From Picochlorum sp. SENEW3 (taxonomy: Eukaryota): DNA of 64,000 bases. The stretch is taken from NCBI GenBank assembly GCA_034226945.1, contig CP120453.1:868001-932000 (forward strand). Reading direction: 5' to 3'. Shown piece after piece: positions 53,542 to 59,810 of the stretch (position 1 is its first letter; each line of letters starts with the position of its first letter). The notes beneath the pieces were generated by a model. That model ran no database searches, was not told the DNA's origin, and saw only the letters and a program-made list of their open reading frames with translations. A program made the translations under genes and the position numbers.

Positions 53542-55635
53542 ATGGACAAGTTCACTTTCCAAGTTTCGACGAAGAAGAATCCCTACCAGGTGGGTCACGA
53601 GGGCTATAGTTTTGTTAAAAAACATCTGAAATCATCGATAACTGGCTTGGATTCCGTTTGTGATGCAGAAACAAAAGGAGAGGGAAGAGAAGAGGAGAAA
53701 GGTATGTCTATGTGATATCATGGTTTGAAGACCGTGTCATGTCTTCCAGTGTTGTTCACTGGATGCTGCATGTATTTCAGAGAGATGAAGAAGAGACTGA
53801 GAAAGTTTTGCAAGATTTTGAAAAGGACTTTGGTGGCGTGACACATGCATCTTCCGGCAAAGGTGGGGGACAGGTTCGGAAGGTCAGAAGAAAGCAGAGT
53901 GTCTTTGGATCTGATCGAGAAGATGAGTCAGAGGAAGACTGCAGACAAGCAGAGCAAAAAGTACATATTAACCCGGAGGTATGTAGATCTTTTGTGCTGT
54001 TGTTCGCGAGGATTTATTGAAGTATGTGATTGCTTTTTTTTTTTTCTTGAAGGAGCCCTTGAAAGCTCATCACATGGTATCAAAGGGTGGCAAAGTAAGG
54101 AAGATGGATATACTTTTGGAAAATTTGAAAAGGTATCGTATTTACCTGTGAAGTAGTTATAATGTTCATGGTGGTATGAGGAGCAATTTGCCCGTTGCAG
54201 GGAGCAAGCAGAGAGAGAAATGAAGAAAGATTGTGGAGATGTAGGCATCAAGGAGAGCAGAAAAGAAGTCGAGTCAGAAGAGTCGACAAATTTGGTTCTG
54301 AAACATTTGGCACCTGATATTGATGAGAGCACTCTTATGCACGAGTTTGGTCGATTTGGTCCCATTGCTAGTGTCAAAATTATGTGGCCACGCGATGAGG
54401 AGCAGAGGCGCAGGGGTTGGAACACTGGATTCGTAGCATTTATGGCACGCCAAGATGCCGTGAAAGCTTTGAAAGAGATGGATGGAATCATGTTTCACAA
54501 TCATAGGCTGGGACTCGCATGGGGAGAAAATGTCCCAATACCAGCTGTCCCACTCTGGCCCCCTTCCTCTGCTGCGGTGAACCCAGAATCGACAAGGAAA
54601 AGATCGATCGATGGGCCACCAATTAAGGAGAAGATCAATGGTAAAGGTCCAGAAGTGATCATTGAAGTTCCAAAAGACGAAAGGACAAGGTTCATAATTG
54701 ACGCCTTGGCTCTTTATGTGGTCAAGGATGGATTTGACTTTGAGCAGGCAATACTACAAAATGAAAAAGATAACAAACTATATAACTTTGTCTGGGATAA
54801 AAAATGTTCAGATCATCTGTATTATCGATGGAGACTCTGGAGTCTGTCAAATGGAGACTCATTAAGCTCATGGAAAGTAGATCCATTCCTAATGTTCAAA
54901 AATAGTTCATTGTGGTTACCCCCTGCTACCAGCCTTATCAAATCTCTGAAAACTAGTAATTCTACACTAGTTTCCAAGACTGAGCATGGGCTTCAACCAC
55001 TTGGGACATTTGGGAGTGAACGCCTTAATGAATTACTTTCCAGCTTGACCTCTGAGAGAAAGTTGGTTGCGGATGCAATGGTCTTTATAATCTCCAACTC
55101 AGAGAGCTCTGTGGAAATATCCAGAATTCTGATGGAATTCTTCGTATCAAAAGAAAGTAACGTGCAGAAGAAATTAGACGTGTTGTACCTTATATCTGAT
55201 GTGCTGTATAATGCATCAGCACCTGTACAAAATGCCTCGCAGTACAGGCCAATTCTCCAAGATGTGCTTCCAGACATGTTCGAGAGTCTGCAAGAGTGCT
55301 ATTTAAATGCACCCAGTAGAATGACGCAAGAACATATTCGAAAACGAGTGCTTCGCGTGTTGAGGGCCTGGAATGGCTGGTATATATTTCAGGAAGAGTA
55401 TTTGCAAGGTCTGCAAGCAACATTTTTGAGAGGCCGGATAGATCCTTCTGGTGCAGTCAAAGTTATGGATGATCTTCCAAGCGATAGCGCTGTGCTAGAA
55501 TACAAGAGAAAATTAGAGAAAATGAATATTGCGGAGATAAAGAACGAATGCAAGAAGAGAGGTGTCAGCAGGAAAGGCACTCACAGTGACATGACCACTA
55601 GATTACTCACAGTCCAAACGTACATCAATCATTAG
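53542..55635 (+). CDS. U2-associated SR140/RRC1-like splicing factor (RRM, SURP, CID, SAP), multi-exon
   Basis: FGRFGPIASVKIMWPR, GFVAFM, HLYYRWRL, LYLISDVLYN, VLRVL..W. Confidence 0.9.
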
Positions 55636-55644
55636 ATCTTATCG

Positions 55645-58012
55645 TTACATTGAAAAGTTTGTGCACCGCTCTATGCCATTAGATATTAGCGTGACGAGTT
55701 CAGGGACTATCTCATCCACAGGTTTTGGTCCAGCAAACACTGTTGTTCCAGCTACAAGCGCATTTGCTCCCGCCTGCGCGACTAATGGAGCATTTTCAAG
55801 GTTGATACCGCCATCCACTTCAATGTTTATCTTACTATTACATCTGCGTAATGCTTCTACCTTGGGGAGTACGCTTGGCATGAATTTCTGCCCACCAAAA
55901 CCTGGCTTGACACTGAGAAGCAGAACGGTATCAAGTATGTTCTCATGAACCAAAGGAAAGATCATTTCTGCATCTGTTTCTGGAGCAAGTGCAATGCCGA
56001 CTTGCATTCCAGTTGATTTGATCTTGGAGATCAGCTGTCGCGCTTTCTGCAGATCATAATCCACTCCTAGGGTCTCAAAATGGAATGTAAATTGACTTGC
56101 ACCTGCCTTGTACATATCTGCAGGATATTTAAAAAGTGCTTCAATTTCCATAAGCACGCAACAAGGACAATGAAAAAATTTTCATACCATCTACATAATT
56201 TTGTGGATTCAGAACACACAAGTGGCAATCCAGAAATGCATCTGTATGCTTTCTCAGAGACTTGACAACTGGTGGCCCTATTGTCAAGTTTGGAACAAAA
56301 TTTCCATCAAAAATATCCACATGAATCCATTCAGATCCTGCACGATAGACGGCAGCAACTTCTTGGGCTAAATTTGCAAAATCTGCTGAGAGAATGGAAG
56401 GTGATATGATTGGGCGGAGCCCTTTCACAGAAGCTGCCATTTTCCTCTTCCTTGATGCCACAGTTTGTCGGGAATTTGCCAAGCTGTGATACAGAGTCTT
56501 ATATTGCTTCAAATAGGAGTCATATACTGATTTCATATCTGGGTTAGGCTTTACCACCCTTTCTACGTGGACCATGGCTTTCACCGCAGATGATACATCC
56601 TCGAATAAATTTGCTCCAACTGCAGCTAAGATGGCAGAGCCAAGGCACGGGGCATCAGATACCTTTGTGAGCACGAAAGGAATCTGGGATACATCGGCAT
56701 GACACTGAAGCCACAGCTCTGACTTAGTTGGACCTCCAGCCACTACAATCGATTCTGGGCTGTAAGATCCTTTCCTCATGGCTTCAAGGACACATTCCGT
56801 TCCATAGCAGACCGCCTCAATCAAAGAACGATACAGATGAGCACGTGTGTGCGCGAGGCTCAATCCAGTGATAGCCCCTCTCGATAAAGGATCAGTGAAA
56901 GGAGTTCGATTACCCTGAAAATGATCCAAACTGAGTACCCCGTCACATCCAGGTGCAACTCCCTCAGCCTCCCTGTTCAACACTTCATAATCTTCAGAGA
57001 GAAGCCTTTTCAACCATGCAAGGATGCTTCCCGTGGAGGTCTGACCACCTTCGACAATATTCATGCCATCAATTACAGCATTTCTGTACGTTCCCCATAC
57101 ACCTGGTGATTCAAACATCCTGTCTGTACAGCCCAGGTGCAAATGACTGGACCCAGTGAGTAATGCCATCTGGCCTGGTTTAATGACCCCGAGACCAATC
57201 ATGCCAACAAAAGCATCTGCCCCACCTTGTGCAACAGGCATCCCTTGAACCAGTCCTAGTTCTGACGATGCCTTCTCGCTCAAACCACCGACAATATCAC
57301 CAAGCTTGAGAACATCTTTGGGCCACTTTTGCATCAAATCAAAAATGCCCAACGACTGCAGCAACGATTCTGGCCACCCTCTCTCTGCATCATAGTGCCA
57401 GCGGATGGTCATATTGTTGATTGAGCCGCACATTCTTCCAGTAAGATAGTGGTTCACATAATCCTGATACTCAACAATATACGCAGCCTGTTCATACACA
57501 GCAGGCTCATTCTCTTTCAACCATAGAGCTTTTGGAACCATCCATTCCGCCGAAACAGGCCCCATACCCCCATTATTAACCCGTAATGCGGGATCATCCA
57601 GCTGTGATATACGATCAGCCTGTTCTGCGCTTCTCATGTCCATCCACAGTATCGCAGGCCTAAGAGCTACCCCAGCCTCATCCAGAGCAACAACTGTACA
57701 GCATGTTGTATCGACACACATGCAGGCTATATCAGAGGTTTTAACTCTAGACGTCTCAATAACACCCCGGACAGCCTTCTTCAGACTCTGCAACATCACA
57801 TGCAAGGAAAACTATCAGCAAACCTCTTGACTCCACTGTTTCTCAGGACGCACCTCTATCCAATCAGATGGCGTTTGCTCCGCCCATGAAGGCTGAGGAT
57901 ACGTAGTATCATATGGGGCAGAATATACAGCCAATTGGCTCCCTTGTAGATCAAATAGGGAGGCTCGAAGGCTCTCAGTGCCTCCATCAATGCCAAGAAC
58001 GTATTTGCCCAT
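55645..58012 (-). CDS. Fused FGGY carbohydrate (pentulose) kinase - ribulose-5-phosphate 3-epimerase, three exons
   Basis: Kinase: LGIDGGTESLRA, DTTCCT, ILWMDMR, GGADA, GNRTP. Same ORF continues into RPE: SPSILSADF, HVDIFDGNFVPN, DCHL, then exon 3 with PGFGGQ and EVDGG. Confidence 0.9.
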
Positions 58013-58256
58013 GTCGTATCACAATTGCACAGCACGCTAGACCACAATTTCGAAACTATTTAAATGATAGTCTACAATCGAGATGGATGTCATCCCATAA
58101 TAGGCTTTTGGCGCCATCTTCCAATCTTCCGTAAAAAAGGCGAGCAAAGAATCGATTCTTGATATCAACTGCATGAATCATATCAACAGTTGATATGGTA
58201 GATGCTTTCTACATCAATTTTGTGTTACAGCCATTCCTGATCCGCAGAAGAGACGG

Positions 58257-58976
58257 ATGAAGAACTGTATGCTTTCGAGTGTTTCGTCCACACAACTCCG
58301 TGGTTATCCCACGAGATGTGTCGCGCAGAAAGGCCATCGAATTAAGAGAAGTGTGATTGTTAGATGTGCCCAAAACGATGCGACTGCAGATAGAAGGAGC
58401 ATCATGCTTGCAGCAGGTGCCTTGAGTCTTACAACAGGAAGTCAGAAGCGAGCTTTTGCTGGGGATTCTCCTGATTTGACAATCACAGATAAGGTATACT
58501 TTGATATGACAGTAGATGGATTAGATGTGGGAAGGATTGTGTTGGGGCTTTATGGAGATACAGTCCCTAAAACTGTGAAAAACTTTGTTGAACTCAGCAC
58601 AGGGAGTCCAGGATATGGTTACAAAGGGTGTTCGTTCCACAGGGTGATAAAATCCTTTGTCTTGCAAGGCGGCGACTTTACTGCGGGTAACGGGACAGGG
58701 GGAAGGTCAATATATGGGAGGACATTCCCAGATGAGAATTTTGAAATACCTCATTTCACTGGCTGTCTATCCATGGCAAATGCTGGGAAAAATACCAATG
58801 GCTCACAATTTTTCATCACTCTTGACGAGACGAGTTGGTTGAATGGAAAGCATGTTGTGTTTGGAAAGGTTGTTGATGGCATGGATGTTGTGCGAACGAT
58901 TGAAAACGTTCCCACCTCTCCTAGAGGGAATCAACCCCTCAGACCAGTTATTATTAAAGATTGTGGCGTTTTATAA
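58257..58976 (+). CDS. Plastid cyclophilin (CYP20-2-like)
   Basis: Bipartite transit peptide; [37 protein letters not shown]. Confidence 0.9.
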
Positions 58977-59291
58977 GTCCTGTGTGGATCACATATGAAG
59001 ACATTATCAACTATTGCGGCGTCTGATGCTGTGTAATCAACAATTCTAGCGTGATACTTGCCGATTCCGAGATGACGTATCTGATTGCAATCTGCGACAT
59101 CTGGGCGAGACGAGAGCCACACACAATACGAGTCACGAAAACTTCTACTACCAGTTTGTTTTTAAATTTGACACATATTCGTTACTTATATTTCATTTGA
59201 GGAGGATATTTCATAGAAGAAAGAGGATTCTGAGGTCAGCGCACGTTGCTGTCAATTCATCACATTTCTTCACGTTCCAAAGTGAATTGCT

Positions 59292-59810
59292 ATGTTCAAC
59301 CTTGGACATACACGCAGCGATTTATATGTTGTGATTACAAAAAATAGCTATGGTTCAAGTCCGGTGCGGCCGAGTAGGGTTCTCTGTGGAAGGAGGCGTG
59401 CTACTTGTCTCGGGAGGTCAGTTCCACGCCTTGGAGGGCTGAACCCAGCGAAAAGAGGACTTACATGTACTTGCTATAGTGTATTAGATGTCTCTGATTC
59501 CGCGACGTCGTCGATAATGCTGGCTGGTCAGATTGCTTCTGCCCTTGCCTGGACTGCGGTGGCATGGATTGGATACCAACTCGTGTTACAGAGCGGCAAT
59601 GGAGAACCTGGAGCTCGAGAATGCGAAACATGTGGAGGTACTGGCGTTGTAGATTGTTTCTGTACACGATGGAGTGATGGGGACAGTCGTGGGTGTGGAA
59701 CATGTGGGGGTAGTTTAAAGATGGCCTGCAGCAGCTGTGGTGGTGGCGGTACTGCTGTGCCAATCCTGGGCAAGGTGTACATTAAGGACGAAAAAGACTA
59801 TAGGCTCTAA
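59292..59810 (+). CDS. DnaJ-like zinc-finger membrane protein, probably plastid
   Basis: One TM followed by CETCGGTG, CFC, CGTCGGS, CSSCGGGG. Confidence 0.8.
   Translation: MFNLGHTRSDLYVVITKNSYGSSPVRPSRVLCGRRRATCLGRSVPRLGGLNPAKRGLTCTCYSVLDVSDSATSSIMLAGQIASALAWTAVAWIGYQLVLQSGNGEPGARECETCGGTGVVDCFCTRWSDGDSRGCGTCGGSLKMACSSCGGGGTAVPILGKVYIKDEKDYRL

Follow-up and report, generated by a model that had tools for sequence, protein, structure and literature searches.

A single-chain FGGY kinase-RPE fusion gene in Picochlorum sp. SENEW3, a member of an uncharacterised algal fusion family

Does one gene of Picochlorum sp. SENEW3 encode an FGGY kinase and a ribulose-phosphate 3-epimerase (RPE) in a single chain, as an initial annotation of this DNA had proposed, and what would the two halves do together? 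The window, meaning the whole stretch of 64,000 nucleotides that was analysed, carries the fused gene on its minus strand at 58012-55645. When its three exons were joined by script, the resulting 2232 nt encoded one protein of 743 residues, with the sole stop at the end. The features are as follows.

57854..58012, minus strand: exon 1, 53 residues, begins MGKYVLGIDGGTES; read from the DNA
58012-58010, minus strand: start codon, in exon 1; read from the DNA
57988-57986, minus strand: DGGT phosphate-binding motif, D9, in exon 1
57788..57853, minus strand: intron 1, 66 nt, GT..AG; exactly these bases are skipped in the X2 contig
56188..57787, minus strand: exon 2, 1600 nt, a single open frame
56118..56187, minus strand: intron 2, 70 nt, GT..AG, phase 1, within the RPE barrel
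55645..56117, minus strand: exon 3, final two thirds of the RPE barrel, C-terminal tail and stop; coding 56117-55648
55647-55645, minus strand: TAA stop, end of exon 3
56477..58012, minus strand: FGGY kinase half, residues 1-490, split by intron 1
57217-57215, minus strand: GGADA aspartate D244, in the kinase half
56417..56476, minus strand: linker NSRQTVASRKRKMAASVKGL, residues 491-510, 20 residues, basic
56440-56438, minus strand: linker Met503, within NSRQTVASRKRKMAASVKGL
55648..56416, minus strand: RPE-type barrel, residues 511-743, split by intron 2
56323-56321, 56317-56315, 56224-56222 and 55815-55813, minus strand: metal ligands H542, D544, H575 and D688 of the RPE barrel
56311-56309, 56218-56216 and 55917-55915, minus strand: F546, C577 and L654 of the RPE barrel, at the positions of replaced methionines
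55905-55888, minus strand: phosphate-binding PGFGGQ of the RPE barrel

Exon 2 carries FGGY_N to its end and also encodes FGGY_C, the linker and the opening third of the RPE barrel. An open frame of 556 aa, from 57811 to 56141 on the minus strand, passes from kinase sequence through the linker into RPE sequence without interruption, just as the initial annotation had read it for the exon at 57787-56188. Transcript data agreed with this structure. In run X2, a single spliced contig of 2937 nt (depth 204) lies on 55560-58072, covers the entire CDS with the kinase-RPE junction, and omits exactly 56118-56187 and 57788-57853, the two introns. A contig of the oligo-dT metatranscriptome X14 joins 56117 to 56188, so that the GT-AG intron proposed earlier at 56187-56118 is skipped in both datasets; homologues lack the 23 residues that its retention would insert. 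Splicing that adds a stop before the RPE was not seen in the X2 contig, which is spliced across the whole CDS. Run X1 was set aside as RNA evidence, as its contigs cover intron 2 in a DNA-like manner, and it is silent on expression. These observations confirm that the fusion gene is real and expressed and encodes a single chain in frame. It should be noted that contigs do not reveal transcript ends, so that the RPE might also have its own transcript or be started internally. That two adjacent genes were merged in error, or that the assembly is chimeric, has a negligible probability. We found no evidence for such an artefact; the open frame crosses the junction within one exon, and the same join is present in the spliced contig and in the DNA run X15, which retains both introns. 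The architecture also recurs in 65 of the best 120 database matches and in transcriptome-derived complete ORFs of other algae (P0034 and P0090), and the two halves yield congruent clades.

The start codon is preceded by an in-frame TGA at 58021-58019, 9 nt upstream, and no ATG occurs in the stretch 58072-58013. From this start the N-terminus aligns residue by residue with bacterial kinases, in line with the earlier statement that the protein has no transit peptide. Given that it lacks an N-terminal presequence, the sole ground for placing it, the protein is most likely cytosolic.

The domain content of the fusion was examined with Pfam profiles. FGGY_N (cut-off 28.8) is matched over profile positions 1-49 on exon 1 (36.7 bits) and 53-245 on exon 2 (82.9 bits), and FGGY_C over positions 3-197 (129.8 bits against a cut-off of 27, 1.4e-37). 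Both domains exceed the Pfam gathering scores, which places the first half in the FGGY carbohydrate kinase family (PF00370 and PF02782). Ribul_P_3_epim (cut-off 21.1) is matched over positions 2-74 on exon 2 (87.8 bits) and 78-198 of 198 on exon 3 (117.4 bits); because the profile splits exactly at intron 2, the barrel is complete.

The Asp of DGGT, the Asp of GGADA, TGSS and AGG are phosphate-binding and catalytic motifs of FGGY kinases. D9 and D244 are present in the window kinase, and the motif columns are invariant or nearly so across 65 fused, 54 unfused and 80 bacterial rows. Among the fused rows, the DGGT Asp is kept in 37 of the 38 that possess an N-terminus, the GGADA Asp in 64/64, and the TGSS and AGGP glycines in 65/65. 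The best-scoring NCBIfam kinase models are all pentulose kinases, namely ribulokinase PRK04123, XylB and TIGR01315, and the same enzymes (AraB-type PRK04123/3qdk; XylB TIGR01312/2itm; TIGR01315/3gg4 and 3l0q) supply the top curated models and structures, with a two-domain fold and ATP-binding and catalytic motifs in common with the window kinase. However, no NCBIfam kinase cut-off is reached. The scores are 262-318 against 428 for PRK04123, 244-303 against 380 for XylB (TIGR01312), 227-264 against 409 for TIGR01315 and 217-254 against 583 for TIGR01234. Exon 2 alone scores 268 (PRK04123), 219 (TIGR01234), 243.5 (TIGR01312) and 242.7 (TIGR01315), while the full-length relative P0025 scores 318.4/428 with PRK04123, 254.1/583 with TIGR01234, 302.7/380 with XylB and 260.2/409 with TIGR01315, and P0005 and P0015 lie below P0025 on the pentulose-kinase models. 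The match to 3gg4 reaches just 170 bits, and the window kinase thus falls outside these equivalogs. Of the initial description as a pentulose kinase, the FGGY domains and the pentulose leaning of the best models stand; since no curated kinase cut-off is reached, the term pentulose kinase is one that we infer, and the models assign no particular sugar.

We then considered how widely the fusion occurs. The kinase-RPE fusion is present in 65 of the best 120 database matches; fused proteins come from green algae as well as Tribonema, Scytosiphon and Prymnesium, and a second search found further fused homologues beyond these 120. JGI labels some members 'ribulokinase/ribulose-phosphate 3-epimerase' (P0020, P0028 and P0036), and others are named for one activity, such as 'carbohydrate kinase' in Chlorella sorokiniana (P0025) and 'Ribulokinase' in Tetrabaena (P0048); Nannochloris P0015 is also a named member. 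The possible novelty raised for the architecture was lost with these entries. A literature search found no description of the kinase-RPE fusion, nor of the bacterial kinase cluster discussed below, and 'FGGY' occurs 0 times in an RPE phylogeny paper (PMC11976288). Having no characterised member, the algal FGGY-RPE family is known by an automatic label.

Separate phylogenies of the two halves, as suggested with the annotation, each gave one clade. An unfused clade (P0032, P0033, P0035, P0039 and P0040) is sister to the fused members. In the kinase tree, a branch with a support of 98 parts 65 fused and 7 unfused rows from 127 bacterial-type rows; in the RPE tree, every fused domain falls in a single clade with a support of 99. 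On these trees the fusion is shown to have a single and apparently old origin. The window protein has the kinase-linker-RPE order of the family, and its two halves fall within the two fusion clades. It shares 60-77% identity with family members over exon 2 and, like them, keeps the RPE metal tetrad and lacks the methionine set described below, while members outside its clade differ in having longer linkers. Compared with ten fused homologues, the kinase is 53-75% and the RPE 36-82% identical, and both halves are, to judge by their sequences, under constraint. The window gene is an orthologue within a catalogued, uncharacterised algal fusion family.

Proteobacteria have close relatives of the kinase, FGGY kinases of ~500 aa that are not fused (Pelagibius P0074, Denitrobaculum P0082, and the Rhizobium, Brucella and Paracoccus loci). 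They have identical motifs and are 55-57% identical to the window kinase across its full length, but they have no RPE domain and lie on the opposite side of the kinase tree. Their genes often adjoin those for acetoin-dehydrogenase-like E1/E2, an ABC transporter, SDR and Dak. Among 80 bacterial loci, acetoin-dehydrogenase-like E1 alpha and beta adjoin the kinase in 54 and 55, respectively, dihydroxyacetone kinase Dak1 in 12 and FucU in 8. No RPE-like gene lies within 8 kb of the kinase in any of the 80 (E <= 1e-3), and no ribulose, xylulose or ribitol operon was found around it at these loci. The acetoin-dehydrogenase-like E1 context is strong in one bacterial clade (54-55 of the 80 loci), and the clade nearest P0074 has mixed neighbours: Dak, FucU, BtpA/SgcQ, ribokinase, an IF-2B-type isomerase with a class II aldolase, and unrelated genes. 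We rejected a substrate assignment from this bacterial gene context, because the algal kinases fall outside both bacterial clades and no substrate is transferable from it.

These neighbourhoods do bear on an alternative reading of the fusion, which we regard as a tentative possibility. The architecture would be the same but the chemistry different: the pair would use neither ribulose nor xylulose but some further ketose, with D-allulose (psicose) as a candidate among hexuloses, erythrulose among tetruloses, and a 1-deoxy-pentulose as a third option, and a re-tooled barrel would epimerise the resulting phosphate ester. That the bacterial relatives adjoin genes for acetoin-dehydrogenase-like E1, Dak, FucU, short-chain dehydrogenases and BtpA/SgcQ, and not pentose genes, is consistent with this, as is a kinase scoring under every curated equivalog cut-off. 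On the other hand, the top kinase models are all for pentulose kinases, and the bacterial context may not transfer to the algal kinases, which the tree places in a clade apart from the bacterial groups sampled.

The residues of the epimerase half bear on the same point. The metal tetrad (H542, D544, H575 and D688), which the initial annotation had found intact, is present and aligns to the tetrad of solved RPEs; it is invariant among the fused homologues (65/65, 65/65, 65/65 and 63/63), as is the PGFGGQ glycine (63/63). In RPEs the two aspartates of the tetrad serve as acid and base. CrRPE1 has three conserved methionines, Met76, Met107 and Met178, which according to a preprint stabilise the enediolate intermediate (10.1101/2022.09.29.510120). 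In the window protein, F546, C577 and L654 replace these three methionines conserved in canonical RPEs. Short RPE-family matches have Met at 102/105, 105/110 and 109/120 of the filled positions, and the Met-Met-Met set is found in 0/66 fused sequences. The sets found instead are F-C-L in 30 (the window and 29 others), M-S-L in 14, F-A-M in 9 and others in 13; the replacements differ by lineage and are constant inside each lineage. Judged by these residues, the RPE half is complete but non-canonical: the full barrel and the tetrad bear out the complete RPE of the initial annotation, which had missed the departure from the canonical methionines.

Such lineage-specific replacements are what re-tooling towards another ketose might leave. 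Profile scores give a mixed picture in this respect. With TIGR01163 'rpe' (cut-off 212.6), two close relatives pass with their RPE halves, P0005 at 219.7 and P0015 at 213.0; the window's two pieces total ~200 as a rough sum, and Chlorella sorokiniana and Chlamydomonas incerta reach just 180 with theirs. P0005 (219.2) and P0015 (202.4) also pass NF004076 (cut-off 165). A complete barrel above threshold is thus found for the RPE family (PF00834; TIGR01163, NF004076), by Pfam in the window and by NCBIfam in P0005 and P0015. The failure of the Chlorella and Chlamydomonas halves with TIGR01163 speaks for another ketose, whereas the RPE halves nearest the window pass both RPE models and reach only 132-142 against 271 with the allulose-6-phosphate epimerase model, and the metal tetrad and phosphate-binding motifs are canonical. 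In its broadest form, the proposal is that the fusion handles neither ribulose nor xylulose and instead gives green algae, with some ochrophyte and haptophyte algae, a hitherto undescribed two-step pathway in the cytosol for another ketose; this is in our view somewhat doubtful.

The loss of two or three intermediate-stabilising residues might also mean that the RPE-like half is a weak or inactive pseudoenzyme, whose role would be to oligomerise or regulate the kinase. RPEs are oligomeric, and CrRPE1 is described in the same preprint as a hexamer (10.1101/2022.09.29.510120). We consider a pseudoenzyme unlikely: neither the metal ligands nor the catalytic aspartates vary (63-65 of 63-65 sequences), PGFGGQ is retained, RPE identity to the fused homologues stays at 36-82% over deep algal lineages, and the replacing residues are hydrophobic or small and non-disruptive.

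The best solved structure for both RPE pieces is the rice cytosolic RPE 1h1y (103.9 and 112.7 bits). This enzyme (PDB 1h1y/1h1z) has the metal ligands and the SPSIL, PGFGGQ and VDGG motifs in common with the window, but it is a stand-alone protein of 228 aa with Met at the positions of F546, C577 and L654. An exhaustive scan covered 1.84 billion representatives; ten of its high scorers were looked up and gave six names, five of land plants (Vitis, Adiantum twice, Acer and Withania) and one of a chytrid. In the RPE tree, a chytrid-containing group is sister to the fused RPE clade, with a support of 83 for the join. The land-plant representatives had been dropped from this tree because their N-terminal parts were unaligned and query coverage was below 185 residues; nonetheless, the dropped rows display DCHLMV and VMTVEPGFGGQ. 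On the score ranks and the chytrid-containing sister group, the RPE half is assigned to the eukaryotic cytosolic lineage.

The linker raised the further idea that translation or transcription from Met503 might yield a free cytosolic RPE alongside the fusion, that is, two products from one locus. Met503 sits 10 residues ahead of the barrel, resembling the start codon of a stand-alone RPE, and is common to the window, P0004 and P0005. The linker comparison did not favour this part of the initial annotation: P0006, P0007 and P0009 have Leu instead of this Met, and the linkers, short (~20 residues) and basic in the window's clade, comprise 40-60 low-complexity residues in the other lineages and are unrelated there. 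The X2 contig passes the Met503 site unbroken, though contigs cannot show starts. A free isoform from this site is therefore distinctly improbable.

We favour, with moderate confidence, a reading in which the gene encodes the Picochlorum orthologue of an algal bifunctional protein, a cytosolic FGGY ketose kinase and 3-epimerase that feeds D-ribulose or D-xylulose into the pentose-phosphate pool. In the protein, an ATP-dependent FGGY-family ketose kinase (residues 1-490) would be joined through the short basic linker to a 3-epimerase barrel that depends on metal (residues 511-743). The kinase's substrate would be a free ketose, most likely D-ribulose or D-xylulose, that may arise from phosphatase side reactions or pentitol turnover; once it is phosphorylated, the attached barrel would epimerise the product at C3, converting Ru5P and Xu5P into each other. 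Sugar salvaged in this way would join the pentose-phosphate pool in a usable or plastid-importable form; a plant Xu5P/phosphate translocator reported by Eicks et al. in 2002 is said to offer a model. The substrate, the direction of flux, any channelling and the location are inferences on our part.

The family probably includes a locus already named in Chlamydomonas reinhardtii, RPE2 (Cre02.g116450). Its own protein was not seen, being absent by name from the homologue search results, and the orthology is deduced from its sister species, as C. incerta (P0390) and C. schloesseri (P0093) both carry the fused protein. A kinase-only entry, P0391, has 520 aa and 88% identity to C. schloesseri, and may stem from an older gene model in which the gene was split. 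The preprint describes RPE2 as predicted cytosolic and 41% identical to RPE1 (10.1101/2022.09.29.510120). In the passages concerned, papers on Chlamydomonas carbon metabolism treat RPE2 simply as an RPE of the cytosol or the Calvin cycle and mention no kinase domain.

By itself, the window gene is one more orthologue of a database-listed fusion, and little about it is new. Green algae as a group conserve the family, which has also spread into other algae, yet no description of it was found in papers. Its members keep the metal centre with the mechanistic methionines replaced, so that either these methionines are dispensable or the barrel has a new specificity. Strain engineering could also use a single-chain kinase-epimerase as a compact module for salvaging pentoses. 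If the RPE2 locus is the fusion, to which its sister species point, models of the pentose-phosphate pathway in the algal cytosol would need correcting, and if the fusion acts on another ketose, the Chlamydomonas 'RPE2' locus would have been misread in papers.

The kinase half of the fusion gene passes into the ribulose-phosphate 3-epimerase (RPE) barrel inside one stop-free minus-strand frame, 57811 to 56141, as read from the window DNA.

Exons of the fusion gene, from DNA reading
58012-57854, minus strand: exon 1
57787-56188, minus strand: exon 2
56117-55648, minus strand: exon 3, then TAA

The two introns (66 and 70 nt) are both GT..AG, and scripted joining of the exons gave 743 codons with a single terminal stop. 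Pfam FGGY_N was matched by exon 1 (profile 1-49) and exon 2 (53-245), FGGY_C was also found, and Ribul_P_3_epim was broken exactly at intron 2 (2-74 and 78-198 of 198). The initial annotation had described a single chain of an FGGY kinase and a complete RPE; frame, Pfam and a spliced contig confirmed this, and its coordinates, linker, intron and metal ligands were all right by DNA reading, Pfam and motif checks. In P0004, a 99% identical database protein, intron 2 (window 56118-56187) carries no in-frame stop and has been translated into 23 additional residues, so that automatic gene calls on the lineage, which also lack exon 1, give slightly wrong proteins. In the window, the intron 2 frame closes at a stop (56143-56141).

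Four sequencing runs were compared with the locus as contigs, which inform on presence and splicing, not on transcript ends or levels. Run X2 gave a single contig (2937 letters, depth 204) that covers 55560-58072 and omits exactly 56118-56187 and 57788-57853, both introns; the whole coding sequence and the kinase-RPE junction therefore lie in one spliced molecule, and no stop is spliced in before the RPE, in line with the original gene model. A contig of X14, an oligo-dT metatranscriptome labelled marine, links 56117 to 56188. X15, near-identical DNA that may be the source of the window, has both introns present, and X1 behaves as DNA. The fusion also occurs in transcriptome ORFs marked complete from other algae (P0034, P0090).

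Neighbours of the fusion gene
54163-55635, plus strand: convergent gene, RRM + Surp + CID protein
58194-58976, plus strand: divergent gene, cyclophilin-type prolyl isomerase (Pfam 8.9e-49)
59286-59810, plus strand: 174-aa open frame with CxxCxG-like cysteine pairs CETCGGTG, CGTCGG and CSSCGGGG

The convergent frame ends (55635) only ~10 nt from the fusion gene stop (55645), so the 3' UTRs of the two genes must overlap; the X2 contig extends 560 letters past 55560 into this neighbour. The cyclophilin-type gene starts only ~245 nt from the fusion gene ATG, a spacing that may reflect a shared bidirectional promoter. If its product starts at the first Met (near 58257), ~80 residues precede the domain; among them, RR and then a hydrophobic stretch may direct the protein to an organelle or a lumen. 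The 59286-59810 frame had no Pfam match at E <= 0.001 and may encode a small zinc-finger protein.

The fusion protein begins with MGKYVLGIDGGTES, which aligns without offset to the start of the bacterial kinases. An in-frame TGA lies upstream at 58021-58019 and no ATG occurs between 58072 and 58013, so the known transcript has no room for a presequence. The earlier claim that a transit peptide is absent was thus upheld, which fits, but does not prove, a cytosolic location. The linker has ~20 basic residues in the window's clade and 40-60 low-complexity residues in other lineages. Its Met503, suggested earlier as the start of a free RPE isoform, is common to the window, P0004 and P0005, whereas the aligned proteins P0006, P0007 and P0009 have Leu there; a conserved internal start is therefore unsupported.

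The possible novelty of the fusion did not survive a domain search, as an RPE domain lies behind the kinase in 65 of the 120 best database matches to exon 2. Named carriers among these matches include green algae (Nannochloris, Parachlorella, four Chlorella species, Micractinium, Tetradesmus, Raphidocelis, Monoraphidium, Tetrabaena, Volvox, Pleodorina, several Chlamydomonas species, Dunaliella, Cymbomonas and a pedinophyte) together with Tribonema and Scytosiphon; a second search added Haematococcus, Scenedesmus, Astrephomene, Chlamydomonas incerta and the haptophyte Prymnesium. Several fused proteins are already named 'ribulokinase/ribulose-phosphate 3-epimerase' at JGI, and UniRef names are glycerol kinase, carbohydrate kinase or RPE. 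Literature searches for an FGGY-RPE fusion found no published description. The gene thus belongs to a database-labelled but unstudied family, and the fusion itself is already known.

Phylogenies of the two halves, run separately, each grouped the fused proteins. The kinase tree (FastTree) held 199 rows: 118 of the 120 matches, the window model and 80 bacterial loci, two matches with <380 residues covered being left out. A branch with support 98 split 65 fused and 7 unfused rows from the other 127. In the RPE-domain tree (181 rows, with one set of 105 thinned to 39), every fused domain fell in one clade (support 99). Stramenopile sequences (three rows) were nested in the green clade in both trees. 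This single fused clade, with stramenopiles inside it, indicates that the fusion arose once and then spread, and points to gene transfer from a green lineage as the source of the stramenopile fusion. Unfused kinases of 373-504 aa also lie within the algal fusion clade (P0032, P0033, P0035, P0039, P0040, also P0037 and the Auxenochlorella protein P0071); five of them are together sister to the clade of the window protein (support 100). Either the RPE half was secondarily lost or split off in these kinases, or their gene models stop short at an intron.

ATP and catalytic motifs of the kinase half are conserved in the alignment. The top curated models are pentulose kinases, with the cut-off reached by none, and the closest structure (3gg4/3l0q) scored just 170 bits. 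The nearest unfused proteins are proteobacterial (~500 aa, 55-57% identical).

Genes adjoining the bacterial kinase at 80 sampled loci
Acetoin-dehydrogenase-like E1 alpha: 54/80
Acetoin-dehydrogenase-like E1 beta: 55/80
Ribose-type ABC transporter: 31-32/80
Short-chain dehydrogenase pair: 26-28/80
Dihydroxyacetone kinase subunits: Dak1 12/80, Dak2 10/80
FucU-type mutarotase: 8/80

Other loci had unrelated neighbours, and an RPE-like gene was found within 8 kb at none of the 80. The neighbours observed do not form a ribitol, arabinose or xylose context, and the sugar is not readable from the bacterial loci because none of the bacterial clades sampled includes the algal one. We infer the 'pentulose kinase' label, proposed initially, from the best-scoring models and the fused partner; it agrees with the former, although all are under cut-off and the bacterial context is of another kind.

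The conserved proteobacterial cluster comprises the FGGY kinase, E1 alpha/beta and a lipoyl/alpha-beta-hydrolase E2, often with the transporter and the short-chain dehydrogenase pair, and in some cases with DhaK/DhaL and the mutarotase as well (for example L031:1404-11053 and L001:3051-9978). It seems to encode an undescribed pathway for a sugar or polyol with thiamine-dependent cleavage; a literature search for a kinase-E1 cluster found no published description.

For both RPE pieces the best solved structure is rice cytosolic RPE (1h1y; 103.9 and 112.7 bits), with apicomplexan, plastid, cyanobacterial and human structures scoring below it. When 1.84 billion representatives were scanned exhaustively with HMMER, only 7 matches reached E <= 1e-30, all of the fusion family, and a plateau followed from ~118 bits; of ten high-scoring matches looked up, six were named (Vitis, Adiantum (two), Acer, Withania and a chytrid). 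These similarities place the barrel in the eukaryotic cytosolic RPE lineage. RPE halves of the near relatives P0005 and P0015 score narrowly above the TIGR01163 cut-off and clearly above that of NF004076; those of Chlorella sorokiniana and Chlamydomonas incerta fall under the former.

The window retains the metal tetrad (H542, D544, H575, D688) together with the motifs PGFGGQ and VDGG, all invariant across the fused family; because the ligands never vary, the barrel is unlikely to be dead or to serve structure only. The pocket differs elsewhere. Five aligned solved RPEs all have H-x-D-x-M-D-G and D-x-H-L-M, whereas the window has HVDIFDG and DCHLCV, and rice V-M-T-V-E-P-G corresponds to LLSVKPG. 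According to a preprint on Chlamydomonas reinhardtii RPE1, the enediolate intermediate is stabilised in part by Met76, Met107 and Met178 (10.1101/2022.09.29.510120). At these positions, 66 fused sequences carry F-C-L (30, window included), M-S-L (14), F-A-M (9), C-A-M (3), V-A-L (3) or others (7); none has M-M-M, and none has Met at the second. V-A-L is common to the stramenopile rows. The ochrophyte and haptophyte carriers of the fusion are P0056 from Tribonema minus, P0067 from Scytosiphon promiscuus, P0046, and P0414 from Prymnesium parvum. Short RPE-family matches have Met in 102/105, 105/110 and 109/120 filled positions; the exceptions (3 Phe, 5 Cys, 11 Leu) are taken to be putative fragments of the fusion family. 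Five land-plant RPE 50%-cluster representatives (P0248, P0252-P0255) have N-terminal parts not alignable with RPE and lack H-x-D-x-M-D-G but retain DCHLMV and VMTVEPGFGGQ; their first exons are probably mis-modelled. Action of the fusion on a different ketose would suit the altered pocket, a kinase assigned to no curated family and the odd bacterial gene contexts, and we regard it as rather unlikely.

The gene encodes a single polypeptide whose two predicted catalytic centres, both intact, have been together since before the green-algal radiations. Phosphorylation by the kinase would trap a free ketose, and the tethered barrel would invert C3 of the product. In the simplest case, D-ribulose or D-xylulose would yield Ru5P and Xu5P in the cytosol, and the Xu5P form would let salvaged carbon enter the plastid. 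We lean slightly towards this cytosolic salvage or repair of D-ribulose/D-xylulose. Xu5P import into plastids reportedly belongs to the translocator model that Eicks et al. put forward for plants in 2002, and a D-ribulokinase repair idea is said to be that of Singh et al. in 2017.

C. incerta and C. schloesseri, both sister species of C. reinhardtii, have the fused protein, and C. reinhardtii RPE2 (Cre02.g116450) is by analogy probably the same FGGY-RPE fusion. Passages in Chlamydomonas papers handle RPE2 as a plain RPE, calling it cytosolic (10.1101/2022.09.29.510120), treating it as a Calvin-cycle gene (PMC8374494) or entering it in a table (PMC12290286). Overall, the single-chain fusion stands from the initial interpretation, pentulose specificity stays inferential and novelty fails; the interest of the gene lies not in the newness of the fusion but in the literature gap and its unusual epimerase pocket.
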